64,000 bases of DNA from Vampirovibrionaceae bacterium NZW_1234 (lineage in GTDB: Bacteria; Cyanobacteriota; Vampirovibrionia; Vampirovibrionales; JAGQHJ01), in assembly GCA_041697335.1 (NCBI GenBank), contig JBGUGD010000009.1, positions 93,415 through 157,414 on the forward strand, read 5' to 3'. Positions 4,610-26,495 of this stretch are shown piece after piece; within the stretch, counting starts at the first letter, position 1, and every line of letters begins with the position of its first letter. Under the pieces are notes generated by a model. The model saw only the letters and a program-made list of their open reading frames with translations. It was not told where the DNA came from and made no database searches. The position numbers were made by a program, and so were the translations under genes.

Positions 4610-4735
4610 TCGTATCAGTCAAAATCAATAATAATAATAACTTGGCGGCTTTAATTCCACCAAGTCAAAACGGTGTGGCTCTGAGACTATATGAAAAAAC
4701 AGACTTTTAAGTCAGGTAAAATTGTAAAAAATTGC

Positions 4736-4774
4736 TTACGATTTCTCACAAAATTCCTTAAGAAAGTTTTTATA
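4736..4774 (+). promoter_or_regulatory. Shared promoter-like motif TTAC..CACAA-N14-GTTTTTATA
   Basis: ccttaagaaagtttttatatt is identical to the copy at 5865-5885. Confidence 0.7.
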
Positions 4775-4845
4775 TTAATAGACCCACACGATGATGTTTA
4801 TTAATTATGGCACTGTGGACAATAAGATTTTAGAGGACAAAGGAC

Positions 4846-5844: not shown

Positions 5845-5883
5845 TTACAGAAAAGCATAAATTACCTTAAGAAAGTTTTTATA
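5845..5883 (+). promoter_or_regulatory. Shared promoter-like motif TTAC..CATAA-N14-GTTTTTATA
   Basis: Fixed-spacing motif. Confidence 0.7.
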
Positions 5884-5957
5884 TTTATATATACAAATAT
5901 GGCATAGGTTAATAAGACTAGGTTAATGGACAATAGGACTTATGGAGGTCTGTGGAC

Positions 5958-6593
5958 ATGGGATACGGAAATATTGCAATTATGACAAGTTCTTTGGCGA
6001 TGGGGCAAAATGCTGATACTCCCCGTCGTCCGAGCTCTGCTGGAAACATTAGTGACAGTAGTGGTTCGGAAGTCACGTCTGGTGGTGGCGGTGCACAATC
6101 TGCTGGAGGCCAATCAGGTTCTCCATTTCGGCCAGGCCAAGTAAGAGTGGATGATAGCCGCGGTACAGAAGTAACATCTACCGGTGGAGCTGGAGGCCAA
6201 TCAGGTTCTCCATTTCGGCCAGGTCAAGTTCGTGTAGATGATACTCGCGGTACAGAAAGAGCGAGTACTTCAGGTCGACAAGCTACTGTACCATCATCTA
6301 CTTTAACAACAACGCCTTCGTACTCTAGCTTCCCCAGTTATGGTGGCCCAGGCCCAGGTATGGTACCAGTGACTGTTGGTGGTTGGGGTCCTTATGGAGG
6401 AGGTCCTGCCGGAACACCAGGCATTGGTTCAGGCCCTCAAATTGTAGGTTATAGACCGGCCGGAGGCTACGGGGCCTATGGTGGTCCTGGTGGTGGTGGT
6501 TATACCGGCGGTGGCTACGGCTCTTATGGTGGTGGTGGCTATGGCTCCTCTGGTGGGGGGTATGGATCCTATGGCGGTGGCTTCCGTCGATAA
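5958..6593 (+). CDS. Array protein 8: 2 modules, Gly/Tyr-rich tail
   Basis: GGAGG upstream; ATG at 5958 (ggacATGgga context shared with paralogues) preferred over GTG 5952. Confidence 0.85.
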   Translation: MGYGNIAIMTSSLAMGQNADTPRRPSSAGNISDSSGSEVTSGGGGAQSAGGQSGSPFRPGQVRVDDSRGTEVTSTGGAGGQSGSPFRPGQVRVDDTRGTERASTSGRQATVPSSTLTTTPSYSSFPSYGGPGPGMVPVTVGGWGPYGGGPAGTPGIGSGPQIVGYRPAGGYGAYGGPGGGGYTGGGYGSYGGGGYGSSGGGYGSYGGGFRR

Positions 6594-6639
6594 ATGTTTA
6601 TTGATGATTTAGGCTTATGGACAATGGAGGACAATAGAT

Positions 6640-7155
6640 ATGGGATTTGGTAATCTCGCATTAATCACAAGTGCTTATGCGATGGGGCAAAGTCCTGATA
6701 CCCCACGCCGTCCTAGCTCTGCAGGAAATATTTCTGACAGTAGTGGAACAGAAATTGGTGGTGGCGGTAATGGACAGCAACCTGGGGCTGTTCCCGGGAA
6801 TCCTTTCCGACCTGGGCAAGTCCGAGTTGATGATACCCGTGGAACGGAGCGGCCTGGTCAAGGCGGACCCGGCGGAGTATCTGGAGGCGCATTTAGGCCA
6901 GGTCAGGTAAGAGTTGACGATACACGCGGTACTGAAAGAAGACCGCCTGCTACTGTACCAACCACACCGACTACTACCTATTCAAGCTCAAGCTCAAGTA
7001 CTAGCTCAGGAAGTGGTGAAGATTATAATAATCCACCTGCCGGATATTATTGGGATTTCAGTGACACTTGCGGTGGGCTGCCTACATTAAGACCCATCCA
7101 AGGGTATCGTCGTACACCTCCTCCAACTTACGATGAAGATTGGTGTAACGGATAA
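6640..7155 (+). CDS. Array protein 9: 2 modules, PPxGYYWDxSD-type tail
   Basis: GGAGG upstream; tail homologous to 1847..2362. Confidence 0.85.
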   Translation: MGFGNLALITSAYAMGQSPDTPRRPSSAGNISDSSGTEIGGGGNGQQPGAVPGNPFRPGQVRVDDTRGTERPGQGGPGGVSGGAFRPGQVRVDDTRGTERRPPATVPTTPTTTYSSSSSSTSSGSGEDYNNPPAGYYWDFSDTCGGLPTLRPIQGYRRTPPPTYDEDWCNG

Positions 7156-7348
7156 AATACTCACTCACTTCATAATAATCGAATGTCATTATATCTAGCC
7201 CAATGATTTTCAGCATTCAAACCATGCAACCTGGGGTGTTGTTCGTAATCATTGGGCTAGACTTATTTAGAGAGCATTGCACATTTAGACTCACTATATT
7301 GGACAAAACGTACAGGGTTAATTTCTAGAAATAGAAGGAAAATTTGCT

Positions 7349-7966
7349 ATGGGTTACACGACAATAATTGATAGAGCCGTTCTTAGAGCCATTGGACAAG
7401 ATGCAACCACGCCAAGACGACCAAGTGCTGCAGGAAATATTAATGATAATAGTGGTAGCGAGGTGAACTCTGGGAGTTTATTAATCCCTACAGGGGAGAC
7501 TTCTCAAAATGTTTTCCGACCTGGAAAAATTGCAGTGGATGACACTCGTGGAGTGGAAGTCAATAAAAATGCAGTTTCTGGTTTATCTAACAATTATTTC
7601 CGACCGGGGCAGGTAAAAGTAGATGATGAACGTGGAACGGAAGTCAATAAAAATGCAGTTTCTGGCTCATCTAACAATTATTTCCGACCGGGGCAGATAA
7701 AAGTAGATGACAAGCGTGGGACAGAGGTTGTGGTTTCACCTGCTCTGCAGCCAGTGTCATCTACTGGAGTTAATCATGCTCCAAATCTAAATGGAGTCCA
7801 ATTTACAAACCATGTGCCAGGAACATTTGGGTTTGGGGGGGCTCCTCCTGGCTCCTTCGGAGGCCCTCCATTTGGACCCTTCTATCCGGGCTTTGCTGGA
7901 AATCCACATGGTTTTCACGGATCATCTTATGGTGGAAGCTTCACTGGAGGCTCGGTATATCGCTAA
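7349..7966 (+). CDS. Array protein 10: 3 modules, Gly/Phe/Pro-rich tail
   Basis: AIGQDATTPRRPSAAGNINDNSGSEV head; 84-nt tandem duplication at ~7556-7723. Confidence 0.85.
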   Translation: MGYTTIIDRAVLRAIGQDATTPRRPSAAGNINDNSGSEVNSGSLLIPTGETSQNVFRPGKIAVDDTRGVEVNKNAVSGLSNNYFRPGQVKVDDERGTEVNKNAVSGSSNNYFRPGQIKVDDKRGTEVVVSPALQPVSSTGVNHAPNLNGVQFTNHVPGTFGFGGAPPGSFGGPPFGPFYPGFAGNPHGFHGSSYGGSFTGGSVYR

Positions 7967-8266
7967 ATTATGGTTTTCAGCTGACCTGTAAATATGCTAC
8001 TGAACTCAATCAGGTTAAGAGAACTAGCTACTTCTTGGTTTAAAATCCCGATAACAAAAGTTTTAGGTGGTTCTGACAGTATTGGGAGTGGATTATCATC
8101 CACTCCCTTAGCTTTTAAGACTTTTCTAAGTACTTCCTATCGATCTTTAAATAGTTATTAAAGAATGAGCTTTAAAGGAGTGTCCAGTATAAGCGTTTGC
8201 GTAGAAGCTGCATAAAATAGACTATGTATGATCAATTTTTAAAAAAACACTTTTTGAATCATTGTG

Positions 8267-8305
8267 TTACAAGCTATTAAAATTAAGAATTAATTAGTTT
8301 TTATA
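8267..8305 (+). promoter_or_regulatory. Shared promoter-like motif TTAC-N26-GTTTTTATA upstream of the long leader of 8620
   Basis: Fixed-spacing motif. Confidence 0.6.
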
Positions 8306-8619
8306 TATATGGGGAAATTCTGAAAAATAACAATACAGAGTGAATGACGAGAAATATTAGAGGGAAATAGTATGTATTCAGCAGGTTTAACTTTGATCGA
8401 TTTTAAAGGCGGCGTATTCTAACGCCTCCCTTTACATGGCAGCGTACTGTGCGTTTTTGCTTTGAAGTACGCTGCCCATATTTATTTTTCCAAATTGATT
8501 AAAATGCTCAGCGAGCTGCTGCACAGCACAGATAACGTGCTGGGTCTCAAGTTCGTAGGAAATCGAGATGAGCGAAACTGCGATAAAAAATTTGACACAC
8601 GAGGGGGGTACTCAAACTT

Positions 8620-11121
8620 ATGCCAATGATTGGAGTAAATCCTTATTACGATGGATCTGCCAACCGAACTTTCGGTGGGAATGAACCAAATCAGCCGTCA
8701 GCTCCAAGTTCGCCTTCCACTGGCTCCAACGCAAATTATGTAGATCAGGCCAGACAGGCTGAACTTCAAGAGCGTAATCGACGGTATAACGCTCGTGGAC
8801 AGTTCTATGAAGCCCAAAAGAAACGGGAAGAAAAGGGTTGGGCATGGTGGGCTAACCCGACTGTTGACATGGAAAGCCTGCAGAAACGCCAGAACGAGGA
8901 AGCACAGAATTTACGTAACCAGGCTCCAGAGGTTAAACCTCAGAAAACCGGGTGGCAAAAATTCTGGAGTGGTGTTAAGTGTGCTACTAACTTTGTGAAA
9001 GGTGCAACGGTTGGTTTTGTTAAGAAAACCTACCAAAGCATGTGCTGTGACGAGAACGGCAATTTTAGTTGGAAGAAAACTTTAACCTCTGCGGCAGTTG
9101 TTGGTGTTGCTGTCGCTGCCTGCGCAATACCCGGTGTCGGACCTGTTATTTCAGCAGGTTTATTGGCATATGGCTTAGGCTCTTCAGCCATTGCTGTTGC
9201 TCAAAACGCTGCTAAAGTTTATGACTTGTACAGCAAAGGCGAGTACGAAATGGCAGAAGCAGCTGGTTATGAGCTAGGGGTGGAAACCACCAATGCCGCA
9301 ATGTGTTTCGCCGGTGGTATGCAGGCCCTCAAGGCAATGAAAGCAGCTCGTGCTGCTCAGGCTGCTCAGGCTGCCAATCGAGCCACTTCAATTGCTAATC
9401 GGGCTGGAAAGCTTGCCAACTTAGCGGATGATGCCATTGCGATGTCTGACAAAGGCAAATTAATTGCAAGATTGCCTATTAAAGGTGGTGGCACAAAAGA
9501 ACTGGATGTTCTGAAAAATATTACACGTGCTGCAGACAAAGCAGATGATATGCTTCCGATGGTCACTCGTGGTACACGCTATGCCAGAAATGGTTCTAGT
9601 ATGGCCGATAAAGCCAAGTCTGCCGCAGAAGGCATGCGTAATTCGGCTGAAAGAGTTAAAGCTGCAGCTGACAAATTGAAAGATATGGATAAGCTGCGTA
9701 AAGCGCAACAAGAAGCACGTCAAGCTATGAAAGACTTGGCACCAAAACTGAAGGATCAAAGAAGTACCATCACTCGACTGGAATCGCAGCTTAAATCTGC
9801 TACGTCCAAGTCGCAAAGAAGAACTATTACCAAGCAATTGGAAACTGCTAAAACGCAGGCTTCACAGACCAAAGCTCAAATGCAGCAATTGGGTGGTAAG
9901 CTCAAAGAAGCCAAGGCACCTATGCGGGAAGTTAAAGATGCGCTGCGTGAATACCAGGCTCACGCCCGTGATTTTGCTAAGGTGGCTCGCAAGTCTTCGA
10001 ATCTGACCACACGATCCAATATGCAGTATTTGGCTCGCCAAAAGCAGGCAGGTTTTAGAGGTGGTTGGAAAAACCCGCTTAACTTGGTTGCAAGACCCTT
10101 GGCTCGCATTAAGAATGCCGGTATGGAAGTTCTTCGTGAAACCAAGCTCAGCATGGGCTTTAAAGTGAAGCCTCCTACAGGCACTGCTGAAGCTGCTAAG
10201 TCTGGCTGGAGATTGACCCGCTGGATGCCAAAACCCTGGAAATGGATGCGCAGCGGTAGCAAAATGGTCGATAAAATGACCAAGCCGAAGCCGCTCCGGG
10301 TTCCCGGTATTGATAAACCTAGAGGTTTCGATGCAATGAGTGCCGCTGAGAAAGCTGCCTTTAGACAACAACGGGCTGCACTCTATGATCAGGCTCGCAC
10401 GAATTTGACCGGTCGCAATGTTAAACTGGATCCTGTAAGACCGAAACCAGTCAGTACTAATCCAAGACCTACATCTCCGACTCCGGCGCCCAGCACAGTG
10501 GCTTCTCCGCCACCAGCACCTGCGGTCACTAATCCTGTTGCTCCGGTTGTTCGAGGAGGCCGTACCTTAACACCCAGTGAAGTAGCTCGTAATGCCAGAG
10601 TTCAGCAAGTGCGAGATGCAGTAGAAGTCGGTAAGCAATGGGTGTACAACAGAGCAACCAAAACCTGGAGTTGGATCTGGGGAGATAAAAACAAACCCAC
10701 TCAAATTGTGGGTGATACCCTTCCCAGAATCTTTACCAGCCCTAATTTGGCTACTCGTACCCAGGTTCGCTTGCCCTATGCAGTGCTTGCTGTCTCTGAA
10801 GGTCGTAACATGCTAGGTGTTGGAACCACCACGGATGAAATGATGGATCCCTTCCGGGCACCAAACGTGGAAAGATACGATCCTAACGCTGCTCGGGAAC
10901 AGGGTGACGATACTTCTGCTCCTGCAGGGATTCGTTACAGAAGCAATTACACGCCTGTTATCGAAGGAACTCCAGTTGCCACTGTTGGTGGAACATCTGT
11001 TCCTTATGGAACCTGGGTATCCTCTTACGATGATATGTATGGAAGTTACATTATGGACGATGTTCCAGGATCTTACACAGGAGGGCGAACTGCCGGTACC
11101 CGGTTCGCAACCAGTGGGTAA
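8620..11121 (+). CDS. 833-aa hypothetical protein: hydrophobic double helix (~aa 155-200), long Ala/Lys coiled coil, basic/Pro-rich C-terminal half
   Basis: GAGGGGG SD; long open frame; TLTSAAVVGVAVAACAIPGVGPVISAGLLAYGLGSSAIAVA segment. Confidence 0.85.
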   Translation: MPMIGVNPYYDGSANRTFGGNEPNQPSAPSSPSTGSNANYVDQARQAELQERNRRYNARGQFYEAQKKREEKGWAWWANPTVDMESLQKRQNEEAQNLRNQAPEVKPQKTGWQKFWSGVKCATNFVKGATVGFVKKTYQSMCCDENGNFSWKKTLTSAAVVGVAVAACAIPGVGPVISAGLLAYGLGSSAIAVAQNAAKVYDLYSKGEYEMAEAAGYELGVETTNAAMCFAGGMQALKAMKAARAAQAAQAANRATSIANRAGKLANLADDAIAMSDKGKLIARLPIKGGGTKELDVLKNITRAADKADDMLPMVTRGTRYARNGSSMADKAKSAAEGMRNSAERVKAAADKLKDMDKLRKAQQEARQAMKDLAPKLKDQRSTITRLESQLKSATSKSQRRTITKQLETAKTQASQTKAQMQQLGGKLKEAKAPMREVKDALREYQAHARDFAKVARKSSNLTTRSNMQYLARQKQAGFRGGWKNPLNLVARPLARIKNAGMEVLRETKLSMGFKVKPPTGTAEAAKSGWRLTRWMPKPWKWMRSGSKMVDKMTKPKPLRVPGIDKPRGFDAMSAAEKAAFRQQRAALYDQARTNLTGRNVKLDPVRPKPVSTNPRPTSPTPAPSTVASPPPAPAVTNPVAPVVRGGRTLTPSEVARNARVQQVRDAVEVGKQWVYNRATKTWSWIWGDKNKPTQIVGDTLPRIFTSPNLATRTQVRLPYAVLAVSEGRNMLGVGTTTDEMMDPFRAPNVERYDPNAAREQGDDTSAPAGIRYRSNYTPVIEGTPVATVGGTSVPYGTWVSSYDDMYGSYIMDDVPGSYTGGRTAGTRFATSG

Positions 11122-14200: not shown

Positions 14201-14241
14201 CTAGCAAAACTAAAAAAACAGTTGTGTTTATATTTATACAA
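14201..14241 (+). promoter_or_regulatory. Shared promoter-like motif CTAGCAAAA-N14-GTGTTTATATTTATACAA
   Basis: CTAGCA..TTTATA also found at ~16335 and ~17445. Confidence 0.65.
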
Positions 14242-14727
14242 GCAATGATGATGGTGCCAAACACCTAAATTATGGGCTTGCGGTTAGATGGAAGTTATAG
14301 GCTGTGTACGAATAAAGAGTCTGTCAGAAGGATGCATATAAACAGATCTGCACGCTGTTTAGAATTGCCCCTCGATGACAATAACGATTTCAACCCACGT
14401 GTATAATCCCACGGCATACGGTGATTGACCCATAGGTGCCAACACCCGTTGCCACAGGGACACATGCAACTGTAGACAATACCATTTTCTCTTCTTTCAA
14501 GAGAAAAACATTGTGTTGGCATGCAGTGGGATCACGCGCTCTGCAAATAAGAGAAAATGCAGGCGGGTCTTCACCTGCACGAAAAAGCAACTTAATTCAA
14601 TGGGAAAGGAAAAACCAATGAGTTGATATGCAAGCGAATGACCCGAAAAACAAGGATAAAAGACGGTTATTAGGCGATATTCAGAGAATTATTCGGTAAC
14701 ACATAAGCTGGGAGGATTACTTAAGGT

Positions 14728-16170
14728 ATGAAAGAATTTGAATTTTTATTACCCCTGTATATGGATTTAAGTGTCTCGGGTTCAAGTGCAGCCTCGGGTG
14801 CATCCAATGTTGAGGCCCCCAAACGCAAGAAGCCCGAAGAGTTGCAGCAAACAACGGATTCTGTGGCAGAGTTGCCGGAATCGGAAACGGATGATGCGTC
14901 AAAAGTATCAGAAAGTTCTGCCCAAATGCCGACAGGCGACTTTGACGATGCTATGGGCGATTTCGAAGAGGTCAGTTTAAAAGACTCAGCTGCACCCGAG
15001 GATGATACGACTGAAGTTAGTGATACCAGTGGTACGCCCGAGGATGATACCACGGAAGTCAGTGATACCAGTGGCACGCCAGAAGATGACACAACGGAAG
15101 TAAAAGACACCAGTGGCACTCCGGAAGATGATACCACCGAAGTGAAAGACACGGGCAAACCGCCTGCTAAGCCAGAAGAAAAGGACGATACGGCCCGAGC
15201 TGCCGAAAAAAAGGATAAACCTGCTACCAAGCCTGATGCAAAAGGTGGTAAGTTGGATCCCGAAAAATTACCAACGTTTAAAGATATGAAGGGGGCGCCT
15301 CCGGAAGCTCGTGATTTAACCGATCAGAAAATTGATGAAAACAACGTTGGCGATGCCGCTAAAATGGCAAAAGACAAGGGTGTCGGTTTTAAAGGCGATG
15401 CTAAGGAAGTGGTTGCAAGAGCTACAGAGATGGTAAAAGCCGGTATTAAGAAAAACGAACAGCTTTTAGCCGCTAAAGGTGGTGGGGCTGGTAAGGATAC
15501 AGCCAAACCGTCTGGTGATAATGCAGGTGGTCTTGGCAAAGATGGCGCCTCTGCCAAAGATGGTGGCGGTGGAATCGGAAGTAATGCTGGCGGAGAACCC
15601 GTTCGTTTCCCTCGTGAATTCTGGGGTGCCGGGCCAGACGCGGAAAATATCAAATCCCAGTTGGAGCAACAAGTTGGACCGCTGGTTGATCAATGTAATA
15701 AACTGGCGGATCAGGTTGACGGGGGCCAAGGTGCTAAAGGTAATGATAAAAAACCTGAAAACAAAGAGAAAGCCGGTGGCGGTGAAGGTGCGCCTCCAAC
15801 GAAAGAAGCCAAGGGTAAAGAAGGCACCGGTGGTAAAGAAACCAAGCCCGCAGCCAAAGAACCCAGTCCATTCGCTCGGCGGACGGATCTTAAGCCCGGT
15901 GAAAAACAGCCCTCTGTTGAAGACACGGCACGCCGCTTAAGAACGGAAGATCCCTCTGGTAAAAAACTCAATGAAGCTCTGGATGGTTTGAAAAAAGAAG
16001 ATATTAATGGATTTAACCCCTTCAATAACGATTTGCCAAACCTCCAGCGATTATTACGGCAACGTTTACGAGATCTTCAAGCCAATCCCACGGCGGAAAA
16101 CCAGAAATTAATTGAACAAACTCGACAGAACCTTCGAGAAATAGATAATCGAATGCGTTCGGTTGCCTAG
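14728..16170 (+). CDS. Acidic low-complexity protein A (paralogue of 17779..19023)
   Basis: GGGAGG upstream; core PTFK..DKGVGFKGD..NEQLL..GGGGIG..P..FW aligns to protein C. Confidence 0.85.
   Translation: MKEFEFLLPLYMDLSVSGSSAASGASNVEAPKRKKPEELQQTTDSVAELPESETDDASKVSESSAQMPTGDFDDAMGDFEEVSLKDSAAPEDDTTEVSDTSGTPEDDTTEVSDTSGTPEDDTTEVKDTSGTPEDDTTEVKDTGKPPAKPEEKDDTARAAEKKDKPATKPDAKGGKLDPEKLPTFKDMKGAPPEARDLTDQKIDENNVGDAAKMAKDKGVGFKGDAKEVVARATEMVKAGIKKNEQLLAAKGGGAGKDTAKPSGDNAGGLGKDGASAKDGGGGIGSNAGGEPVRFPREFWGAGPDAENIKSQLEQQVGPLVDQCNKLADQVDGGQGAKGNDKKPENKEKAGGGEGAPPTKEAKGKEGTGGKETKPAAKEPSPFARRTDLKPGEKQPSVEDTARRLRTEDPSGKKLNEALDGLKKEDINGFNPFNNDLPNLQRLLRQRLRDLQANPTAENQKLIEQTRQNLREIDNRMRSVA
14995..15156 (+). 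repeat. 4x 42-nt coding repeat (PEDDTTEV[SK]DTSGT)
   Basis: Visible in both translation and DNA, with synonymous differences between units. Confidence 0.9.
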
Positions 16171-16215
16171 TTGTTCAACAGTCAATGGAAATTATGAATG
16201 TGAAACAGGTTTTCA

Positions 16216-16278
16216 ACCTAGCGTAACTGTCGTAAACACTTACGAGACAACCCCCGACGCAAGTCGGGGGCTTTTTTT
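16216..16278 (+). ncRNA. Conserved 3'-UTR element (34 nt) plus terminator; candidate antisense/sRNA, copy 1
   Basis: acctagcgtaactgtcgtaaacacttacgagaca is identical to 17267-17300 and complementary to 17742-17767; followed by cccccgac-gcaa-gtcggggg and a T tract. Confidence 0.6.
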
Positions 16279-16334
16279 AGCGTTCTTTAGACTCTTTTTG
16301 GAAAACTTAAAAGACCCTTAAACTCACATCAAAT

Positions 16335-16367
16335 CTAGCACAAGGGACTTCAAGGATTGTTTTTATA
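16335..16367 (+). promoter_or_regulatory. Shared promoter-like motif CTAGCACAA-N15-GTTTTTATA
   Basis: Motif conservation. Confidence 0.65.
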
Positions 16368-16581
16368 CATTTAGAAAGACCTGATATGAATAATGATACT
16401 AGGCTGTGTACGGTAAATTAACGAGTCAATTAAAACGAGCAGTGCTTTTAACACAATAGGAAGCACTCTGGTGTGTACCCGCTGACTGTCGCCAGGTACG
16501 GCTTATGGTGCTAGGCATTGCCCGGCGTATCGTCAACGAGTCTCAAGGGCTGAGACTGAATGATATTCTAGGCTGAGAGGA

Positions 16582-17256
16582 ATGACTACTATGATGAAGA
16601 CCACATTCGAGTTTTTAACCCCAGTGTATAAAGTAGGGCTGCCCATCCTGTCCCAATCGGGTGCGGCAGGGGCCACATTTAAAAAATTGTTGGAGGACAC
16701 GCAAAAAAGTGCGCCACAGCAACAACCGGGTGCAGCGTCCCCGTTGGCGGGACCGTCTCAGGATACCCTGCAGAGTGACAACACAAACCAAGTAAATCCC
16801 AGCGATGACGATGCCGATTTATTTGAAGCCCAAGGACAAGGCCCACAGGGTGCTGAGGATCCGGGCGCAGCTGAGCCCGCAGGTGAAACCGAGGGTACCC
16901 AGGGGAACCCAAACCCAACTGGAACTCCTGGTGAGGGTGATAATACGGCCAAGGGGACAGAGGGACCCAATGGGGCACAACAAGAACAAGGCGACGCCCC
17001 CCGGAGCCTTCAAGATCTGGAGAAAGAGTACAAAGAGTTGGTCGATGGCTATGAAAGGCTTTCTCAGCAAGAGAAGGAAAGTCCCACGGGCAAGCGGTTA
17101 GAACAAGTTCTCCGGGACATCGAGAAAAAACTTGAGGAAAAGCGAAAGGAAAAAGCCACTGGTCAACCTGGAGGCAACAACCCCCAAAATCCGCAGAACC
17201 CGCAAAATGCTGAAAACGGTCAAAATCAGCAACGTCGACAGCTCCAAGCATCCTAG
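16582..17256 (+). CDS. Low-complexity protein B with C-terminal coiled coil
   Basis: N-terminus FEFLTPVY matches FEFLLPLY of protein A; the start may be the ATG at 16591 or 16594. Confidence 0.8.
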   Translation: MTTMMKTTFEFLTPVYKVGLPILSQSGAAGATFKKLLEDTQKSAPQQQPGAASPLAGPSQDTLQSDNTNQVNPSDDDADLFEAQGQGPQGAEDPGAAEPAGETEGTQGNPNPTGTPGEGDNTAKGTEGPNGAQQEQGDAPRSLQDLEKEYKELVDGYERLSQQEKESPTGKRLEQVLRDIEKKLEEKRKEKATGQPGGNNPQNPQNPQNAENGQNQQRRQLQAS

Positions 17257-17266
17257 ATTTATTTTC

Positions 17267-17329
17267 ACCTAGCGTAACTGTCGTAAACACTTACGAGACA
17301 CCCCCCGATACCCATCGGGGGCTTTTTTT
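17267..17329 (+). ncRNA. Conserved 3'-UTR element (34 nt) plus terminator; candidate antisense/sRNA, copy 2
   Basis: Identical to 16216-16249; followed by cccccgat-accc-atcggggg and a T tract. Confidence 0.6.
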
Positions 17330-17444
17330 ATCTGCACTGGTTTCAATTCAAGACGTCCCTCTAAGGGATTGACCCTCATTATCCATGTGCTGAAAATGAA
17401 CGTCAAACGCAGATCCTTAAGAGATTATTAGGATCGTCTTGAAA

Positions 17445-17485
17445 CTAGCACAAACGAAATCTAAAACGATTTTATATTTATACAA
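17445..17485 (+). promoter_or_regulatory. Shared promoter-like motif CTAGCACAA-N14-GATTTTATATTTATACAA
   Basis: Motif conservation with 14201 and 16335. Confidence 0.65.
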
Positions 17486-17778
17486 ACAAACGAGCCAATC
17501 ACATCATCAAGGTGAACTGCTGCTCAAACGTAGGCTGGTGAACAAGACAAGTTTTATTAAATCAGCTGTTGATGCATGCCGTGCTACTTTGCCGTGAATG
17601 GCAAGATACTTCGGTGAATCTAGCTTCGTGAGGTCAATAGTTACGTAAGGAAATAACCGATGTCATAAGTCTTTATCGTGCGGTCGTGCGCAATCACGGT
17701 CCAGAGTGGGCTGTCGCGTGCGCTGTTGTGAGTCAAGTTATGTAAGTGTTTACGACAATACGCTGGGAGGAAAAACAA

Positions 17779-19023
17779 ATGGTTGCATCAGGAATTACAC
17801 GTCGACCGATACAGGGGCCCGGACAGGGCCAGCCAGTACAGGGTGCTGGAGCTAGTGGCAATTCTGGTATACAGGAAGGTACCCAGATAAATATGACTGG
17901 CAACACAGGTGTTAATGGTGAAAACACACCTGAAGCTGTCAACAACTTAGCCTCGGATGCAGAAGGCCCTGAAGATTTTGATTTTACTGGTTTAGAGGAT
18001 GATAACTCTACGAATGGTGCTGGTAATGGACCCACAGCTGCTAATGGAGCCAGCGGACCTGCCGGAGCCTCTGGTGCTGCAGGCGCCAGTGGAGCTTCAG
18101 GTGCTGCCGGAGCTTCTGGAGCAAATGGTGCTCAACCTGCAAATGGTGCGGGTAATGGTCAACGTCCCACATTTAACGGAACCAACGGACCCGAGGGGGC
18201 CCAGGATTGGACCGGTGAAGAATTCAATGCCAATAACATCGAAGAAGCCGGACAAGCCGCAAATGACAAAGGGATTGGTGTTCAGGGCGATGTCCAAGCC
18301 CAGGTAGCGGCAGCCGAGAAATTCTGTCAGGAAGCCATTGCACATAACCAGCGCTTGCTGCAACAGCTTGGTGGCGGCGGTGAAGGTGGCGACTCTGCCG
18401 GAGGTGCAGGTGTTGAAGGACCTGCCGGTGGCGTCGGTGAAACACCAAGTGCCGGTGGTGGTGAAGGTACCGATGGTGGTGGCGGACTCGGAGGCAGTGC
18501 CGGCCAGCAGCCCGTAGATATTCCATCACAAGTCTGGAGTAAAACCGCTGATGGTCAAGACAACCAAGAAGGTATCCAGGCCCTGCAACAGGTCGTTCAA
18601 CGCTACAAGCCCCAAAACGATCCGCTCGTTCAGCAGATCCGTCAGCGCCAAGGCGGCGGTGAAGCAGCTAATGGTGGTGAAGGTAACAACGGGGCTCCTG
18701 CCAACGGGGCGAATGGAACTCCCACCAATGGAGCCAATGGCGCTAATGAAGTAAATCCGGCCGGTGGCGAAGGCAACCAAGATAAACCATTAAATGAAAT
18801 GTCTGCAGATGAAATTCGGGCACTGACGCCGGAACAGCTGCAAGCCAAGGAAGCTGAAATGGAAGAAGCCGGTACCGGTGCAACGCTTGATGAAGAGCAA
18901 CAAGCTGCGGTTGAAGAAGTTCGATCCAGAGGCCAGCAGCCTACCGAAGAGGCTAACAATGGTGATAACCTGGTTCAGGGTAATTTCGACCAACAGCAGC
19001 CTCGTCGGGCCGTGAATGCATAG
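17779..19023 (+). CDS. Acidic Gly/Ala/Asn-rich low-complexity protein C (paralogue of protein A)
   Basis: GGGAGG 8 nt before ATG 17779 (preferred over GTG 17746); GASGAA repeats; core shared with protein A. Confidence 0.85.
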   Translation: MVASGITRRPIQGPGQGQPVQGAGASGNSGIQEGTQINMTGNTGVNGENTPEAVNNLASDAEGPEDFDFTGLEDDNSTNGAGNGPTAANGASGPAGASGAAGASGASGAAGASGANGAQPANGAGNGQRPTFNGTNGPEGAQDWTGEEFNANNIEEAGQAANDKGIGVQGDVQAQVAAAEKFCQEAIAHNQRLLQQLGGGGEGGDSAGGAGVEGPAGGVGETPSAGGGEGTDGGGGLGGSAGQQPVDIPSQVWSKTADGQDNQEGIQALQQVVQRYKPQNDPLVQQIRQRQGGGEAANGGEGNNGAPANGANGTPTNGANGANEVNPAGGEGNQDKPLNEMSADEIRALTPEQLQAKEAEMEEAGTGATLDEEQQAAVEEVRSRGQQPTEEANNGDNLVQGNFDQQQPRRAVNA

Positions 19024-19123: not shown

Positions 19124-19151
19124 AACCCCTCGAGGCAACTCGAGGGGTTTT
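19124..19151 (+). terminator. Intrinsic terminator
   Basis: aacccctcgag-gcaa-ctcgaggggtttt. Confidence 0.8.
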
Positions 19152-19212
19152 GGTCTTTGTCGTAAAATGTGAAAACAAACCGATTCCCTCAACCTATGGG
19201 AGATTGTCCGCC

Positions 19213-19817: not shown

Positions 19818-20474
19818 CTATTTCTCGCTGAACCCGGATTCAATGGCCCACACAATGGCTTCCGAGCGGGTATTCACCCCAATTTTACTGTAAATGTTAT
19901 ACAAATGATTATGGACGGTTTTGGGGCTGACCATCAGGAGTTCGGCCAGTTGCTGGTTGGAGTACCCTCGGGTCAGGGCCGACAGGACTTCCTTTTCCCG
20001 ATCCGTCAGCGCATCGAAGATATCTTCTTTGGCCGTAAATTTTGCCGAATTCAGCTTTTCGGACAAATCGGCAGACAGATCCAGGGTCTCACCGGCAATG
20101 ACCCGATGAATGGAGCTAATCAGTTCTTCAATCTGAACATCTTTCAATAAAAAGCCCTTCACCCCCAGATCCAGGAATTTCTTCAACACCAGCGTGTCAT
20201 CCTGATTCGTCAGCACAATAATCCGAGCCGCTGGCCATGCTGTCATAATGGCCCGGCTCGCCTCGTACCCGTTCACTTTGGGCAGGTTGATGTCCATCAG
20301 AATGACATCCGGCTTTAGCGCCAGTGCCTGCATAATGGCATCTTCCCCGTTGTCGGCTTCGCCACAGATCTCGATCTGTGAATCCGTGGCCAAGAGCTGC
20401 TTCAGTCCTTGACGCAAGATCGTGTGGTCATCAATCAGTAACACGCGAATGGCAGTTGTCTCTGTCATAGTCAT
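19818..20474 (-). CDS. NarL/LuxR-family DNA-binding response regulator
   Basis: REC (IDDH, MDINLP) plus LuxR HTH (LTDREKEVL..SNQQLAELL.VSPKTVHNH). Confidence 0.95.
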   Translation of the reverse strand: MTMTETTAIRVLLIDDHTILRQGLKQLLATDSQIEICGEADNGEDAIMQALALKPDVILMDINLPKVNGYEASRAIMTAWPAARIIVLTNQDDTLVLKKFLDLGVKGFLLKDVQIEELISSIHRVIAGETLDLSADLSEKLNSAKFTAKEDIFDALTDREKEVLSALTRGYSNQQLAELLMVSPKTVHNHLYNIYSKIGVNTRSEAIVWAIESGFSEK

Positions 20475-21792: not shown

Positions 21793-22208
21793 CCCTATTC
21801 AACCAAACCCACACCCCACTGCCATGAGGAATCTTTCCCCACTTCCCTAGGTATTCTTTCCTATCTTCTCGTATGTTTGATGTATTTGTGCACATTATCA
21901 ATAATGGGGGCCTTGCCCCCAAACCCCCACCAAAGGGCCACCTGGCCCTCTGGACACCCAACCGGGATAGTTAGGGAGGGGGCCTTTTCTAAAATATGTG
22001 ACCTGGAGGTTTAAATGCCCCCTCCCTAACTATCCCACACGGGGTTCCAAGGGGCCGTAAGGCCCTTTGGCAGGGGTTTGGGGACAGCGTCCCCATTATC
22101 GACAGGGCGCACGGATACGGCAAACACATGGAGAAGATAGGAAAGAATACCCAGGGAAGTGAGGAAGATTTACTCAGGAAAGGGTTGATTGGTTTTGGTT
22201 GAATGGGG
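21793..22208. repeat. Long imperfect inverted repeat (two ~190-bp arms, 33-nt spacer), MITE/REP-like
   Basis: 21793-21983 aligns to the reverse complement of 22017-22208 (e.g. ggtattctttcctatcttctc; gggatagttagggagggggc). Confidence 0.85.
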
Positions 22209-22254
22209 ACAGTTGGACATAGCTTTACGTTACACAGCGAAGGAGTATTCACCG

Positions 22255-22581
22255 ATGATCACGTTGGACAATGTTTTAGCCGGGTTGACCCAAGGCTTGC
22301 AGGGCAATAATAAAGCTGGCGGTGGTCAGAGTGCAACCGCAAATCCGTTGGAAGGATTATTAAGTGGTGTTGTGTCGTCCTTGACCGGGCCGTCTGAGGA
22401 TGTTGCCGAGATCGGGCCTCGCAAAGCCAAAGCGGCTAAATCCGAGAGCCAGCAACAGAGCGGTGGTTTGGTCAGCAATCTGCTGTCTCGGGGCAAGAGT
22501 TTGGCCATGACCGTTGCCGTTGGCCTGGGGTTGTATTATTTGGCAAAACGGTTCTTTTCGGGAAATAATGGCAATCAATAG
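22255..22581 (+). CDS. Small hypothetical protein with C-terminal membrane anchor
   Basis: AAGGAG before ATG 22255; LAMTVAVGLGLYYLAKRFF. Confidence 0.7.
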   Translation: MITLDNVLAGLTQGLQGNNKAGGGQSATANPLEGLLSGVVSSLTGPSEDVAEIGPRKAKAAKSESQQQSGGLVSNLLSRGKSLAMTVAVGLGLYYLAKRFFSGNNGNQ

Positions 22582-22633
22582 GCCGGACTGGTTTTATTAG
22601 CAGTCTGCGACAAGATAGGAATTTGTAACGCTC

Positions 22634-23470
22634 ATGTACGGTCCCAGCTTGCTTCCCTATGTACTTCATTCCCAAGGCCCATCCGTGGGTTGGCAGAATG
22701 TGGTGGATCGATCCGCCGAACAGTATTACAGCTGGGGTAACATTAAGACCCAGATGGCGTTGAATTCGGCGGCGCAGTCCATGTTTAGCGATCGGGACAA
22801 CCCGATGGGGGCAGCCGGAAGTGCTCTGGTTACCTATGGGGCGTTAACGGCAGGCGAAAAGTTTTTCGGGCTGTATGGCCGGATGCTGAAGCGTTTTTCG
22901 GAGAATCATCCCGGCTTTGCCGAGTTTCGAAACACGCACCCCATTATCGGCAATATCCTGGCCTGGGGGCCCGGCGTGGGGCTTGGCGTTGCAGGCGGGG
23001 CTGCGGCCTTTGCCGTTGGCCGAAGCATTCTGGCCAATGGTATGAAAGCCGGTGTATTTAATGCGTTGAATGCGAATCCGCTGGTTCGCACATTAGTTTT
23101 AGGAGGCATTCTGGTCGGTGGCCTGGCCACCTCGTTCCTGGGAATTTTTGCTCGCAAGGGCATTGGGGAATTGTCCGATTCGGGGAAAGAGTATCGCGAG
23201 GCCCGCAAGGTCAATCCGACCATGGCGCCGGATCAACTTAAGCAGTTGGTCAAGGCGACTCGGAACCAACGTATTTTGAATCAACAGCTGCAAGCCCAGG
23301 AAGAAACCCGACGCTCCCAGCTGGATCCTTTTTACAAGGCCCGTCCGGTCCAGCGTCAAGATGAGGTGGTTAATCCAAGACTAAATCCGGCGCCGATGCA
23401 GACGATGTCCAATCAATGGCAATGGCAGCCTGCGGAGAGACCGGTATCTCGCCAGCTTCAGTGGGCATAG
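22634..23470 (+). CDS. Hypothetical membrane protein (Gly-rich TM helices, Gln-rich tail)
   Basis: GPGVGLGVAGGAAAFAVG and LVLGGILVGGLATSFLGIF segments. Confidence 0.75.
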   Translation: MYGPSLLPYVLHSQGPSVGWQNVVDRSAEQYYSWGNIKTQMALNSAAQSMFSDRDNPMGAAGSALVTYGALTAGEKFFGLYGRMLKRFSENHPGFAEFRNTHPIIGNILAWGPGVGLGVAGGAAAFAVGRSILANGMKAGVFNALNANPLVRTLVLGGILVGGLATSFLGIFARKGIGELSDSGKEYREARKVNPTMAPDQLKQLVKATRNQRILNQQLQAQEETRRSQLDPFYKARPVQRQDEVVNPRLNPAPMQTMSNQWQWQPAERPVSRQLQWA

Positions 23471-23585
23471 GGGTGATTATCCTGCTTCGGTGGGAATAAA
23501 AAATACAGTCTGTACGGGCAGGCATGAAAATCCTGTGACCGGTTTTTTTTAGGATATTCAAAAGTTTATCCTGAAAGGATTTCCT

Positions 23586-25379
23586 GTGGTACGCATTATG
23601 CTGTTCAGCAGGAACCAGGGGCCTCCGAGGCGTGTCGGCGTTGCTGCCGGTGGCGGTGTTGCCCCACGAAACGTGTTAAACCGGGTTGCGCTGCCGCATC
23701 CGGTCTCGCAACCTAGGGCTGAATCAGTACGCTTTGGCGGCGTCACGGGGACTCTGGCGGATCGTCACTGGATGTCTCCAAAAGCCTTTCAAAACCTGTT
23801 AAACATTGCCTCAACGCCCTACATTGGGCGGTTGCCTGACGCTTTGCGCCAGGCGGTCGAGGGCTCGCCCAAGCAGGTGTATCAGGCCCTGGATGAACTG
23901 GCACCGTTGTTGCGCAAGCTCCGAAATTGTGACACGGATGATTTGGCGTTTCGTATCGGCCCATCCAACGTCCCAGTGACCCTCCACCAGATTGGCTCGG
24001 GCAGCTATGGGATTGTCTATCGCCTGACGGTCAATCAGCAGTCGTTTGCCTTAAAGGTTTACCACCACACCACGGAAGTATCTACCCATGGCTCCTATGG
24101 CGAAAGTGCGACGGGACTCTATTTTTCTCAACAAAACCTGAAGGATGTGGCCCGGTTTCATTTCGGCAATCCCAAGGCCGGGTGGGGGGTCTTCGAGTTG
24201 ATTACCTCCGGGATGTCGGTCGCCACGCGAAAAGGCCAATCCATTAAAGCGTTTCCGGTTGTTTTGGAAGACGATCGGGATGTGAATCGGATAAATGGCA
24301 TCCGGGTCGACTATGGAGGTATTCTTAAAAGCAGTCAACGCCGAGAGAGGAAAAAACTCGGCGGGTATCCGCAGGCAACAGTCAATCCAGACAGCGGGAT
24401 CCAGGCAAGTAATCCGTCAAGACTTTATAACCTCCCCCAGGACGAACGCTATGAAGCTTTCCTGAAGCTCATGCAGTCGAAGCAGCCTTTCGCCCTTCTT
24501 GATGCGGTTTCTCAGATTGACAATTTGCCGGAGCAATGGCGCTATGAAGCTTTTAATCAGGCGATGCATACCGGGGAACAATGGGTACAAGCCAAGGCGG
24601 CGTCAAAACTCTTCTGTCTGTCGCCTGAATTTAGGGTGGAAGCCTTTCGTCAAGCGATCCAAACCACCGACATCATGGTGCAGGCCAATGCTTTGTCGCA
24701 ACTGAAGTGCCTCCCCACTGAATTTCGACAAGAAGCCTTCGAGTGGGGGATCAAAACCCACATCCCAGCATTGCAGTCTGTGGTTGCGTCTGAAATTTAC
24801 AGTCTACCCGAAGAATTCATCAATACGGCCTTTCAACGGGCCATGCAAACCCGGGACCCATTGGTTCAAAGCAATGCTGCATTGGGGATATCTCAATTGC
24901 CCCCGGCCTTCCGGCACGATGCGTTTGAGCAGGCCATGCAAACCGAGGATCCGTCTCTTCAGGAGATCGCGGTTTCTCAACTATTCAGTCTTCCCAGTGA
25001 GGTTATTCCAACGATTTATCACCGCGTGATGCAGACCCAAAACCCCATGTTTCAGGCGAGTGCGGCGTCGCAGATCGGTGCGTATCCATGGACGTTCCGG
25101 CAAGACGCGTTTCAGCAGGCCATGAAAATTCAGGACCCGAGGGTGCAAGCCAGTGCCGCTTCTCAGATCTCCAGCCTGCCTCCCGAAGATCGGCAAGAAG
25201 CTTTTGAGCAGGCACTACAAACCAACAACCCGGATGTTCAGGCCAGTGCCGCAAGTCAAATCTATAGCTTCCCCAAGGCATTCAGGCCCAACGCAGTTCA
25301 GATGTATGCAGACGCCATGGCGCGTCATGGGGCGTTGCAGTGTGTGAAAGACCTGACCCTCATCACCGCTTCAGCCTGA
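23586..25379 (+). CDS. Protein-kinase-like domain fused to ~9.5 tandem 31-aa HEAT-like repeats; SVRFGG motif near the N-terminus
   Basis: IGSGSYGIVY, FALKVY, DDRDVN, VDYGG; repeat IxxLPxEFRxEAFxQAMQTxDPxVQAxAASQ; start uncertain (23586 or 23598). Confidence 0.8.
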   Translation: MVRIMLFSRNQGPPRRVGVAAGGGVAPRNVLNRVALPHPVSQPRAESVRFGGVTGTLADRHWMSPKAFQNLLNIASTPYIGRLPDALRQAVEGSPKQVYQALDELAPLLRKLRNCDTDDLAFRIGPSNVPVTLHQIGSGSYGIVYRLTVNQQSFALKVYHHTTEVSTHGSYGESATGLYFSQQNLKDVARFHFGNPKAGWGVFELITSGMSVATRKGQSIKAFPVVLEDDRDVNRINGIRVDYGGILKSSQRRERKKLGGYPQATVNPDSGIQASNPSRLYNLPQDERYEAFLKLMQSKQPFALLDAVSQIDNLPEQWRYEAFNQAMHTGEQWVQAKAASKLFCLSPEFRVEAFRQAIQTTDIMVQANALSQLKCLPTEFRQEAFEWGIKTHIPALQSVVASEIYSLPEEFINTAFQRAMQTRDPLVQSNAALGISQLPPAFRHDAFEQAMQTEDPSLQEIAVSQLFSLPSEVIPTIYHRVMQTQNPMFQASAASQIGAYPWTFRQDAFQQAMKIQDPRVQASAASQISSLPPEDRQEAFEQALQTNNPDVQASAASQIYSFPKAFRPNAVQMYADAMARHGALQCVKDLTLITASA

Positions 25380-25466
25380 AACCGTACCCGGCCTGCATTT
25401 AAAATGGCATGGCCTCACCCGGTTGATGAAGGTGCGACGTTCGGGCAAGGGTGGTAGGATGGGACC

Positions 25467-26495
25467 ATGATGCTTCGACGCCGTATTTTAGCGCTTTTGA
25501 TTCTCGTGCTTGGGTTGGCCGGGCAGGGGCATGTGGCCGCACAGAAATCGGATCAATCGGAGTTGGATCAAGCGGCCATGAAACAGGCCGTTTCCCACGA
25601 GGGATTGCGCGGGATGATCCACGGGGCCAATCCCGCCACCGGGGCCTATGTGCTGACCGTTCGTCATCCCCAGGATTTTTTTGACAGCATGGAGATTTCC
25701 CTGGTCCCCGCCTCGCCTGAAGTGCGACAAACCTTGGCCCGCTTGAAGCGGCATGACCAGGTTCGGGTGAAAGGCGCGTTTCTGAATAATCCCTCTCCCC
25801 AACCACACCTTCAGGTCGCGGAGGTAATCCTGGAAACCCCATGGCAACCTTCAACCATGGCTTCGCCCAGCCGGAAAACCCTTGAATCGAATATGCCTGC
25901 CACACTCCCGTCCTCTGGGGAACTAGTCGGCATCGTGCATGCCCTCCTGGAAGAGGGGCGGCTGTTGGTGGTCGAAGCCGGACAGCAGGTCTGGCCCGTG
26001 GTTGTGACTGATCCCGCATGGACACGTGATCTGTGGCGGGGGGATGGGATCCGGATGACCTACCGCACCCAGGGGTGGCCGCCTGAACCCACGCATTTAA
26101 TGTTGGAAAATCGTGCCGAAACCCCGCTGGTGGTTTTTGAGCGTTTGCAGATGGTGCATCAGAAACCCCTAACCCTCACCGGGGCCTTGGTCTTGTTTCC
26201 TCAAAGCCCGATTATTAACCGCGATGTCTGGGCCATTGAACAAACAACACCGGAAGGGCTCACCCGGTATTTTACGTTGGTCAATTTTGATGACCCCGAT
26301 GAGTTTTCAAAAATCGATGCCCGGCTTCGCCGATGGTGGGACGCCGAATCGGCCACGGCCGTTTCCGGCCGGAACAAATTCATCAACCCCAAACTCCTGA
26401 TTCAGGCTTCCGGCGTGGCCAATATTGAATCGCCGAATCAGGCCAATCCCCAATTAACGGTTCGTGTTCAGCATCTTGTGAAAGTTCAAAAATAA
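25467..26495 (+). CDS. Hypothetical exported protein
   Basis: Sec-type signal MMLRRRILALLILVLGLAGQGHVAA; beta-rich body. Confidence 0.75.
   Translation: MMLRRRILALLILVLGLAGQGHVAAQKSDQSELDQAAMKQAVSHEGLRGMIHGANPATGAYVLTVRHPQDFFDSMEISLVPASPEVRQTLARLKRHDQVRVKGAFLNNPSPQPHLQVAEVILETPWQPSTMASPSRKTLESNMPATLPSSGELVGIVHALLEEGRLLVVEAGQQVWPVVVTDPAWTRDLWRGDGIRMTYRTQGWPPEPTHLMLENRAETPLVVFERLQMVHQKPLTLTGALVLFPQSPIINRDVWAIEQTTPEGLTRYFTLVNFDDPDEFSKIDARLRRWWDAESATAVSGRNKFINPKLLIQASGVANIESPNQANPQLTVRVQHLVKVQK

Follow-up and report, generated by a model that had tools for sequence, protein, structure and literature searches.

Two tandem genes, A and B, end in an identical 34-nt element that lies between each gene's stop codon and its own terminator, and that can pair in antisense with the ribosome binding region of a third gene, C. 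Antisense silencing from within a 3′ UTR is already known from other bacteria, and the A/B element is probably another case of it. More specifically, we put at roughly even chances the reading that the element belongs to an Hfq-independent antisense regulator similar to s-SodF, with A and B as the candidate donors and with C and a further paralogue, D, as the candidate targets.

The genes and their relationships

All positions refer to the window, the whole 64,000-nt stretch of DNA that we analysed. The window belongs to contig C9 of a 3,698,875-bp assembly, 94.75% complete, from an uncultured hot-spring bacterium. The features of the locus, all on the forward strand, are as follows.

14201..14241 (+), promoter-like motif of A, from a regular-expression scan (C9:107615 is window position 14201)
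14728..16170 (+), gene A, 480 aa, low-complexity orphan protein, proposed donor 1; stop codon 16168-16170 (open reading frame list)
16210..16279 (+), 3′ module of A: UUUUC, element 16216-16249, terminator hairpin 16251-16270, U-run
16335..16372 (+), promoter-like motif of B, from the same scan (C9:109749)
16582..17256 (+), gene B, 224 aa, proposed donor 2; stop codon 17254-17256 (open reading frame list)
17262..17330 (+), 3′ module of B: UUUUC, element 17267-17300, terminator hairpin 17302-17321, U-run
17445..17485 (+), promoter-like motif of C, downstream of the element's B copy and upstream of the target site (C9:110859)
17737..17774 (+), proposed target site, a stretch of the C leader that can pair with the A and B modules; core 17742-17757, Shine-Dalgarno (SD) sequence GGGAGG 17765-17770
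17779..19023 (+), gene C, 414 aa from the ATG at 17779, proposed target
19124..19149 (+), terminator of C, with no element copy ahead of it

Gene D, a fourth paralogue, is found on another contig (C25), where its upstream neighbour is a minus-strand gene. The core of A is related to C (E = 4e-11) and to D. The first-pass annotation had treated A, B and C as paralogues; this holds for A and C, but B is barely a paralogue (A-B, E = 0.001 across 24 aa; B-C, E = 0.19), and the A and B proteins share an N-terminal FEFLxPxY motif and nothing else. The proteins of the family are low-complexity and repetitive, and no Pfam family matched the gene A protein. A two-component system lies 0.8 kb downstream, with a LuxR-type response regulator at 19818-20474.

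The orthologous locus was found by DNA in 0 of 40 relatives, and protein C in 0 of 48 other genomes of the order. Searching a profile of the protein core against 5.8 billion clusters (7,999 candidates scored) recovered A and D only, while HMMER against 1.84 billion representatives recovered A, D and an unrelated 969-aa repeat protein only. Metagenome contig and genome contig collections yielded no orthologues, and the ESM Atlas gave no usable match. The protein family is young and orphan, and a single genome is where it is found.

A constrained element precedes two terminators

The identical string that the first-pass annotation had placed behind A and B, directly before their terminators, is exact at both positions. 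When up to three mismatches are allowed, the element still has two matches in the window, and none of 100 shuffles has any. Each copy sits 1 nt ahead of an intrinsic terminator-like hairpin and its U-run, and both terminators are strong (8-bp GC-rich stems followed by U7). Within the whole assembly, the 16-mer core with up to one mismatch occurs at only three sites, namely the two elements and the C leader, and a reversed control occurs at none. A blastn-short search of the genome found no further copies of the element; its next matches (17/18 and 16/17) fall within reading frames, and the near-matches at C23:74271 and C30:94683 were discarded, both being inside coding sequence. In metagenomes, an 18-mer of the element had two matches, both within unrelated coding sequence. 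A dispersed repeat had been named at the outset as the reading that would overturn an antisense one, together with a search for more copies; since the 3.7-Mb genome has three sites, and these lie together in 1.6 kb, a REP- or MITE-like repeat is rejected. The Rfam families matched nothing at gathering score, the sole match being anti-hemB (20.6 bits versus 49.5, E = 0.25).

The element is identical between A and B at 34 of 34 positions, the terminator that follows it at 24 of 30, and nothing else can be aligned outside the module, apart from the UUUUC found just 5′ of both copies. Because of this difference, we conclude that the element's primary sequence is constrained; had it drifted at the terminator's rate, our own arithmetic gives a probability of 0.8^34, or about 5e-4. 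The terminator differences include a compensatory C-G to U-A change in the stem and changes in three of the four loop bases. Consequently, the earlier statement that there is little conservation beyond the element is right for the unalignable flanks, but it passes over the terminator and the common UUUUC. The element also holds a 6+4+6 palindrome (TCGTAA-ACAC-TTACGA), and the hairpin first proposed from it does appear in the centroid fold, though it is weak. Both copies keep the same layout of seed, hairpin and terminator. In the A copy an upstream hairpin is predicted to close part of the seed, which counts against an antisense role.

The element is complementary to the C leader across its SD sequence

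The reverse complement of the element matches 17742-17757 in the C leader at 16 of 16 nt, as first described. With up to two mismatches the window has three matches, and none occurs in any of 100 shuffles. A second block of 9 bp, between UACGCUGGG at 17759-17767 and CCUAGCGUA, contains one G-U pair and runs into the GGGAGG at 17765-17770, which lies 8 nt ahead of the ATG at 17779. Both blocks are therefore real, but the pairing had been described as too short. With its flanks it extends over 17737-17774 in stretches of 3, 17, 9 and 5 bp (about 34 bp in all), reaches to 5 nt before the AUG and includes four of the SD sequence's six bases. The SD sequence is bracketed, with G17765-67 and G17770-A17774 both paired.

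We calculate a duplex energy of -43.0 kcal/mol between the element and the C leader. The genome background consists of 184,856 windows of 60 nt (mean -13.0, sd 3.5), from which the top three, the elements' own opposite strand, were set aside as self. Of the remaining windows, the C leader is the strongest partner, even at an energy of -38.9 that is cut by the window grid, and so the genome-wide comparison proposed in the first-pass annotation comes out in its favour. The second-best non-self window (C29:15921) is inside coding sequence and was discarded. When intramolecular folding is included, the ddG for C is -30.6 with the B module and -29.1 with the A module, while the start regions of A and B themselves have values from -5 to -14. 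Among 600 random 100-nt windows (mean -5.4, sd 2.5), none reaches -30.6 and one reaches -16.5. C ranks first among the 342 start regions that contain GGAGG-N4-9-ATG.

A 16-nt inverted repeat is, taken alone, weak evidence. There are 15 perfect inverted repeats of at least 16 nt, spaced 30-2000 bp apart, in the genome, where our own arithmetic expects about two by chance. Consequently, the significance of the match rests on the element being predefined, on the extensions of the pairing and on D. Two other features of the locus did not survive. A riboswitch-like C leader was dropped, as its fold is no stabler than shuffles (z = +0.67), and the 8-bp "return signal" that had been proposed between AUACAGCC, ahead of the C terminator, and a box in the A and B leaders is at chance level, being equalled in 242 of 500 and 383 of 500 shuffles.

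A partial match in paralogue D, and the rival readings of descent and pairing in cis

The D leader is third by duplex energy among the non-self genome windows (-32.9). With folding included, its ddG values are -16.5 and -17.8, and it ranks second of the 342 SD-bearing start regions, but barely (-16.5 versus -16.4 for the next site); D is then not a statistical outlier. Its complementarity differs from that of C along the element. The element's 3′ end (UACGAGACAAC) is complementary to D at 11 of 11 positions, where C matches poorly, and its middle is complementary to C at 16 of 16 positions, where D differs.

The complementarity as a whole could be a product of descent instead of selection for pairing, because the module's reverse complement aligns like a homologue with a broken SD sequence. 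The alignment with the C and D start regions continues through the SD sequence and the A-rich spacer, with GCTAGGT-GAAAA standing against GCTGGGAGGAAAA at the damaged site. The module may then be a functionless relic, a C/D-type start region that was duplicated in inverted orientation behind a gene, later spread from one of the genes A and B to the other through duplication or gene conversion, and regulates nothing. That the family is young, orphan and limited to one genome is consistent with a relic, and gene conversion could explain the 34/34 identity. However, a recent conversion tract would need to stop exactly at the element's edge, where it abuts a terminator that differs at six of 30 nt and in which two of the changes compensate each other. 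A relic also sits poorly with the 11/11 match to D at positions where C has diverged, and with the tidy seed, hairpin and terminator layout kept in both copies. We consider it unlikely.

D also bears on whether the pairing takes place within one molecule. The genes are in tandem and share a strand, with 447 and 1498 nt separating the target from the two copies of the element; in read-through transcripts from A or B, the element could fold onto the C start, so that C would be translated only from transcripts of its own promoter. The icaR mRNA provides a precedent, in which a 3′ UTR closes the SD sequence of the same molecule (in the available part of PMC3868564). Such cis insulation would leave the partial target in D without a role, as D lies on another contig behind a minus-strand gene, and read-through should be rare because both terminators are strong. 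We give it only a small chance.

Promoter-like motifs and the DNA-level readings

A regular-expression scan of the genome for motifs of the type CTAGCA..N..TTTATA found 14 strict and 26 loose sites, and all four genes, A, B, C and D, carry the same motif. We infer from sequence that motifs of this type act as promoters. Because the motif is common to donors and targets, the four genes may be co-induced, which would be odd for an either/or switch; a common motif is by itself no switch. A sigma-70 scan for an internal promoter of the 3′ module returned seven promoter-like sites where 5.5 were expected. The TCGACA ahead of both elements was rejected as a module promoter, since it encodes a conserved Arg-Gln and its distances differ (94 and 32 nt).

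The promoter-like motif of C at 17445 lies between perfect 16-bp inverted repeats, 447 nt apart. Invertons are promoters flanked by inverted repeats (as defined in the available part of PMC11602134), and a recombinase could flip the 447-bp segment between 17279-17294 and 17742-17757, or a 1498-bp segment by using the A copy, to produce phase variation of C. The low-complexity, repetitive proteins of the family are of a kind often seen in phase-variable surface proteins. In the 94.75%-complete genome, however, the serine recombinase family PF00239 has no matches, and none of the nine matches to the tyrosine recombinase family PF00589 is on C9 or C25, although a distant enzyme could act. The repeat sequence is absent elsewhere in the genome. 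Of 13 sequencing runs listed, none is recorded as RNA. Four DNA runs contain no flipped joints, and their contigs bridge both arms in the reference orientation (16645-17719 and 17712-18047); these contigs have 2-5x coverage and drop rare variants, and so they weigh neither for inversion nor against it. The same 2-5x contigs contain a single SNP, at 15559. Inversion would also give no account of the third arm, behind A, of the indel by which the extended repeat differs, of the junction with the terminators being fixed, or of the match in the D leader. We regard it as improbable.

The palindrome within the element, together with the ability of DNA sites to function in either orientation, is compatible with a transcription factor operator, for example for the LuxR-type regulator at 19818-20474 in the two-component system 0.8 kb downstream. 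Sites of this kind would precede the promoters of B and C, and an inverted one would follow the promoter of C, an arrangement in which looping is conceivable. Yet the common sequence is asymmetric about the palindrome and continues into the SD sequence, and its distance to the next promoter motif varies (86 versus 145 nt). There is also no copy ahead of the promoters of A and D, nor close to any of the 22 remaining motif sites, and the conserved junction with the terminator is an RNA feature. An operator is, in our estimate, very improbable.

Proposed mechanism

The reading we prefer, an antisense regulator carried in the 3′ UTR, would operate as follows. The mRNAs of A and B would each end in a module of about 70 nt, in which a single-stranded seed at the 5′ end (UUUUC-A-CCUAGCGUA) is followed by a weak hairpin and then by the terminator of the gene itself. 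Either within the full-length mRNA or after being cut off from it, the module would act as an antisense RNA on the C mRNA, where it would form about 34 bp at positions -42 to -5, and it would pair less completely with the corresponding region of D. The SD region would be occluded, 30S binding would be blocked, and the duplex would probably become an RNase III substrate. Transcription of A and B would then lower the output of C and D. That the modules are transcribed as drawn, that the RNAs meet, and that regulation has this direction and sign is what we infer. The genome contains genes for RNase III and RNase E/G. The Hfq family PF17209 has no matches in the 94.75%-complete genome (as a control, it matched in 5 of 14 genomes), and an Hfq-dependent sRNA was therefore set aside. 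Compared with the first-pass annotation, in which transcripts of A or B silence C as part of a cross-talk switch, the sequence premises of silencing are stronger than first seen, but the return signal is at chance and the shared promoter motif makes no switch.

A broader interpretation is doubtful. The orphan family would consist of two classes wired together by RNA, with FEFLxPxY donors (A and B) that carry the module and targets (C and D) that carry the anti-module over their SD sequences. The module would have arisen by inverted duplication of a target start region and would now be mosaic-complementary to both targets, with the result that, at the RNA level, some of the co-induced paralogues would take precedence over the others or exclude them. 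Plant miRNA genes, which arise from their targets, offer a likeness for such an origin.

Significance

If confirmed, the locus would offer a clean natural example of a gene whose 3′ UTR silences a relative of that gene, beyond the few model organisms where this is known and in a lineage that lacks Hfq and in which no RNA regulation has been studied. Its evolutionary origin would also be visible, as the antisense module resembles its target's ribosome binding region in inverted form. The search for long sense-strand complementarity, suggested by the s-SodF authors (in the available part of PMC3919588), here yields candidates in metagenome-assembled genomes. Practical value is limited by an uncultured organism and by proteins without known function.

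Comparison with known systems

Enterobacterial 3′ UTR sRNAs such as CpxQ and DapZ are Hfq-dependent. The A/B modules resemble this type in the use of the parent mRNA's terminator by the sRNA and in the placement of the seed 5′ of that terminator; they differ in that no Hfq gene was found and in a pairing far longer than the 7-12-nt seed of the Hfq type.

Invertons, as the available part of PMC11602134 presents them, share with this locus a promoter-bearing segment that lies between inverted repeats, ahead of a gene for a repetitive protein. Here, unlike in invertons, there is no recombinase nearby, a third arm is present and the repeat is fused to terminators.

In icaR of Staphylococcus aureus, a 3′ UTR motif binds the SD region, initiation is blocked and the duplex is an RNase III substrate (PMC3868564, available part), all of which we propose here. 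The icaR pairing relies on a short anti-SD motif, UCCCCUG, and joins parts of one mRNA molecule or two copies of that mRNA (same source and extent). At the A/B locus, in contrast, the donors' own starts pair poorly and the strong partner is another gene. In hly-prsA2 of Listeria monocytogenes, the 3′ UTR of a full-length mRNA pairs in trans with the 5′ UTR of another mRNA (PMC8722363, available part), as it may here. According to the same account, that pairing stabilises the target against RNase J1; at C the SD sequence is covered, and so repression would be expected instead.

The closest likeness is to s-SodF of Streptomyces coelicolor, an sRNA processed from the sodF 3′ UTR that represses sodN (PMC3919588; this and the following statements on s-SodF follow the available part of that report). 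In both systems, an antisense sequence in one gene's 3′ UTR faces the 5′ region of another gene up to its ribosome binding site, an antisense-bearing stem-loop is followed by a terminator stem-loop, the lineage is without Hfq, and the case was first spotted by sense-strand complementarity. s-SodF has been proven with a Northern blot, RACE, mutants and measured half-lives, and Streptomyces species share it, whereas the A/B element is a candidate predicted from sequence, for which the searches found no orthologues. The arrangements differ as well. Two tandem donors and two candidate targets are present here, all four genes have the same promoter-like motif, and the products are mutually related orphan low-complexity proteins, while those of the s-SodF case are unrelated isoenzymes. 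The complementarity of s-SodF spans 16-19 nt; that of the A/B element has 16 nt perfectly matched and about 34 bp in all.

Genes of the locus and the repeated 3′ UTR element

The assembly spans 3.70 Mb in 41 contigs and is 94.75% complete; the window lies on contig C9, and the locus is found in sequencing runs labelled as metagenomes of hot springs or microbial mats. Four genes are considered, of which A, B and C form a tandem row:

Gene A: 14728-16170, plus strand, 480 aa
Gene B: 16582-17256, plus strand, 224 aa
Gene C: from ATG 17779, 8 nt past GGGAGG, plus strand, 414 aa
Gene D: contig C25, L007:1114-2493, 459 aa, found by searching the genome with C

A, B and C match no Pfam family. A and C have a common core of ~66 aa (38% identity, E=4e-11), which D carries together with a collagen-like repeat. 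The likeness of B to A is confined to a 24-aa N-terminal stretch (E=0.001), and B shows no resemblance to C (E=0.19). ORFs lacking a Pfam family also form long runs elsewhere in the window (1-11118 and 22189-26492), and 18 of the 29 scanned ORFs had no match at E<=1e-5.

The first-pass annotation proposed that a 34-nt element in the 3′ UTRs of A and B is antisense to the ribosome binding site of C. The element exists in exactly two identical copies (16216-16249 and 17267-17300; matched by 0 of 100 shuffles), each separated by one base from a terminator-like hairpin and U7 run, and its central 16 nt recur in reverse complement at 17742-17757. Across the whole assembly, this 16-mer, with at most one mismatch, occurs only at the two 3′ UTR copies and the C leader, and a sensitive blastn search with the module (UUUUC, element and terminator) found no additional copy, its two next-best matches lying inside reading frames. 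Therefore, the element is not a dispersed repeat, an alternative that the annotation itself had raised.

In and around the module, the only DNA that aligns between A and B consists of UUUUC, the element and the terminator. The element is identical at 34/34 positions, whereas the following 30 nt agree at 24/30, differing by a compensatory C-G to U-A stem pair, 3/4 loop bases and one base 5′ of the stem. The comparison therefore indicates that structural constraint shaped the evolution of the terminator, whereas the element remained wholly unchanged. By our own arithmetic, the chance of an unchanged 34-mer at the terminator's rate is ~5e-4, and the element appears to be constrained at its primary sequence. 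Downstream of the C terminator (19157-19196), three 8-9-nt pieces of the A 3′ UTR (TGTCGTAAA, AATGTGAAA and TCAACCTA) may be a decayed module copy, or chance.

Predicted pairing with the C leader

Cofolding predicts a longer pairing than the annotation had described, with ~34 bp across 17737-17774 and three small internal loops. The duplex opens with GAC, continues with 17 bp (16 Watson-Crick and one G-U) and the pairing of CCUAGCGUA to UACGCUGGG, and closes with UUUUC, just 5′ of the element, against GAAAA at 17770-17774. It takes in 4/6 SD bases and stops 5 nt short of the AUG. The element is a mosaic: it complements C at 16/16 positions of its centre, a stretch in which D differs, and the D leader at 11/11 positions of its 3′ end, a stretch in which C pairs poorly. 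A rival reading is a cis fold-back of the element in read-through transcripts.

A 16-nt perfect inverted repeat alone is not rare; genome-wide there are 15 such repeats of at least 16 nt with arms 30-2000 bp apart, against ~2 expected by chance (our own arithmetic). Significance rests on the element's prior definition by duplication and on the energy ranks. The duplex between the element and the C leader has an energy of -43.0 kcal/mol. In a background scan of 184,856 windows on both genome strands (mean -13.0, sd 3.5), with the three top windows set aside as the elements' own opposite strand, the C leader ranked first (-38.9, its site being cut by the window grid), followed by a site within coding sequence (-35.8) and the D leader (-32.9).

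Table. Interaction energies (ΔΔG, kcal/mol) with intramolecular folding included
C: -30.6 with the B module, -29.1 with the A module
D: -16.5 with B, -17.8 with A
A start region: -12.8 with B, -14.2 with A
B start region: -5 to -9 with B and A

Among 600 random windows, none reached the ΔΔG of C, one reached that of D and five met that of A. Among 342 strong-SD start regions, C ranks first and D second, the latter by a narrow lead (-16.5 versus -16.4 for the third). That the complementarity to C exceeds chance is beyond doubt; the evidence for D is suggestive. The A leader itself carries GACGGTTATTAGG (14662-14674), an imperfect complement of the element's 5′ half, where a weak cis or self-interaction (-12.8 to -14.2) is possible.

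A common promoter-like motif

A, B, C and D are all preceded by one promoter-like motif, CTAGCA-N-TTGTTTTTATA (window 14201, 16335 and 17445; L007:818), with 22 further sites in the genome. Its full form, CTAGCA[C/A]AA-N13-15-TTGTTTTTATA, is strongly conserved (14 strict and 26 loose sites genome-wide) and does not look like the sigma-70 consensus. Besides these four genes, mostly orphan small or low-complexity proteins lie downstream of it, plus a C39-like and an M16 peptidase, and GTGTG-rich stretches lie 3′ of several other copies. Near the start of their leaders, A and B have a 13/13 identical box, TAGGCTGTGTACG (14298-14310 and 16400-16412). The annotation suggested that this box could pair with a possible return signal from C, AUACAGCC; the sharing between A and B is real, but shuffles paired as well in 242/500 and 383/500 cases, and nothing ties the box to C.

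The copy behind B and the one in the C leader could instead be the inverted repeats of an inverton, and the 447 bp between them do hold the C promoter motif. However, no serine recombinase was found in the 94.75% complete genome, 0/9 tyrosine-recombinase matches lie on C9 or C25, and the repeat is unique to the A/B/C locus and fused to terminators; inversion would also leave the third arm unexplained. Contigs from four runs carry the reference orientation only, at a depth of 2-5x that decides nothing on inversion. A DNA operator is another rival to RNA pairing.

Proposed mechanism and origin

In the RNA-pairing reading, the A and B 3′ UTRs, whole or as fragments, would mask the SD region of C and, less strongly, that of D; the duplex would block initiation and probably trigger cleavage. 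The B module is predicted to present a free 5′ seed, then a weak hairpin and the terminator; in the A module, part of the seed is sequestered by an upstream hairpin, with the weak hairpin and terminator next. No Hfq gene was found in the 94.75% complete genome, which does encode RNase III and RNase E/G; this suggests antisense pairing through a long duplex and independent of Hfq. Sequence does not reveal in which direction regulation would run, and co-degradation would lower both partners. Because the four genes have a promoter-like motif in common, the interaction would be one among co-induced genes and not a simple either/or switch.

In reverse complement, the module can be aligned to the start regions of C and D across the SD and A-rich spacer, resembling a homologue with a damaged SD. 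Inverted duplication of a start region would be its simplest origin; consequently, complementarity alone is no proof of selection for pairing, and a functionless relic is a further rival.

Other terminator-linked units and repeats

An ~80-nt terminator-bearing unit containing CCUCCC and a purine-rich core occurs twice (C2:124324-124358 and C38:18072-18106). Its core is complementary over 14-17 nt to pyrimidine-rich stretches in other small terminator-bearing units (C5:235008, C7:38533 and C34:80703), one with GATTGTTTTTAT just 5′; together they may form an sRNA and sponge network. More families of identical 21-45-nt stretches immediately 5′ of intrinsic terminators occur at C8:99456-100370 (an array of three), C29:92198/C2:123407, C26:88086/C7:86864 and C37:112741/114512. 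In the window, a perfect 21-bp inverted repeat (21850-21870/22131-22151), with 260 bp between its arms, surrounds a hairpin whose stem measures 20 bp (21964-22036; GGGATAGTTAGGGAGGGGGC). Since three more copies of this hairpin lie on other contigs, the 21850-22151 unit may represent a small repeat, either mobile or structured.

Comparison with known systems

Judged by sequence, the complementarity at the locus is real, statistically solid and well placed, and it shows signs of sequence constraint; most likely, a known kind of regulator has here a new example specific to this lineage. The closest known system by analogy is s-SodF of Streptomyces coelicolor, described as a ~90-nt fragment of the sodF 3′ UTR whose 19-nt anti-sodN stretch extends to the RBS. 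It is built of two stem-loops, of which the second is the terminator, and its lineage lacks Hfq; as here, its discovery began from sense-strand complementarity (PMC3919588). Pairing between 3′ and 5′ UTRs is also described in cis for icaR (PMC3868564) and between full mRNAs for hly-prsA2 (PMC8722363). On paper, the A/B/C locus would work like these systems, whose class is defined by experiment.
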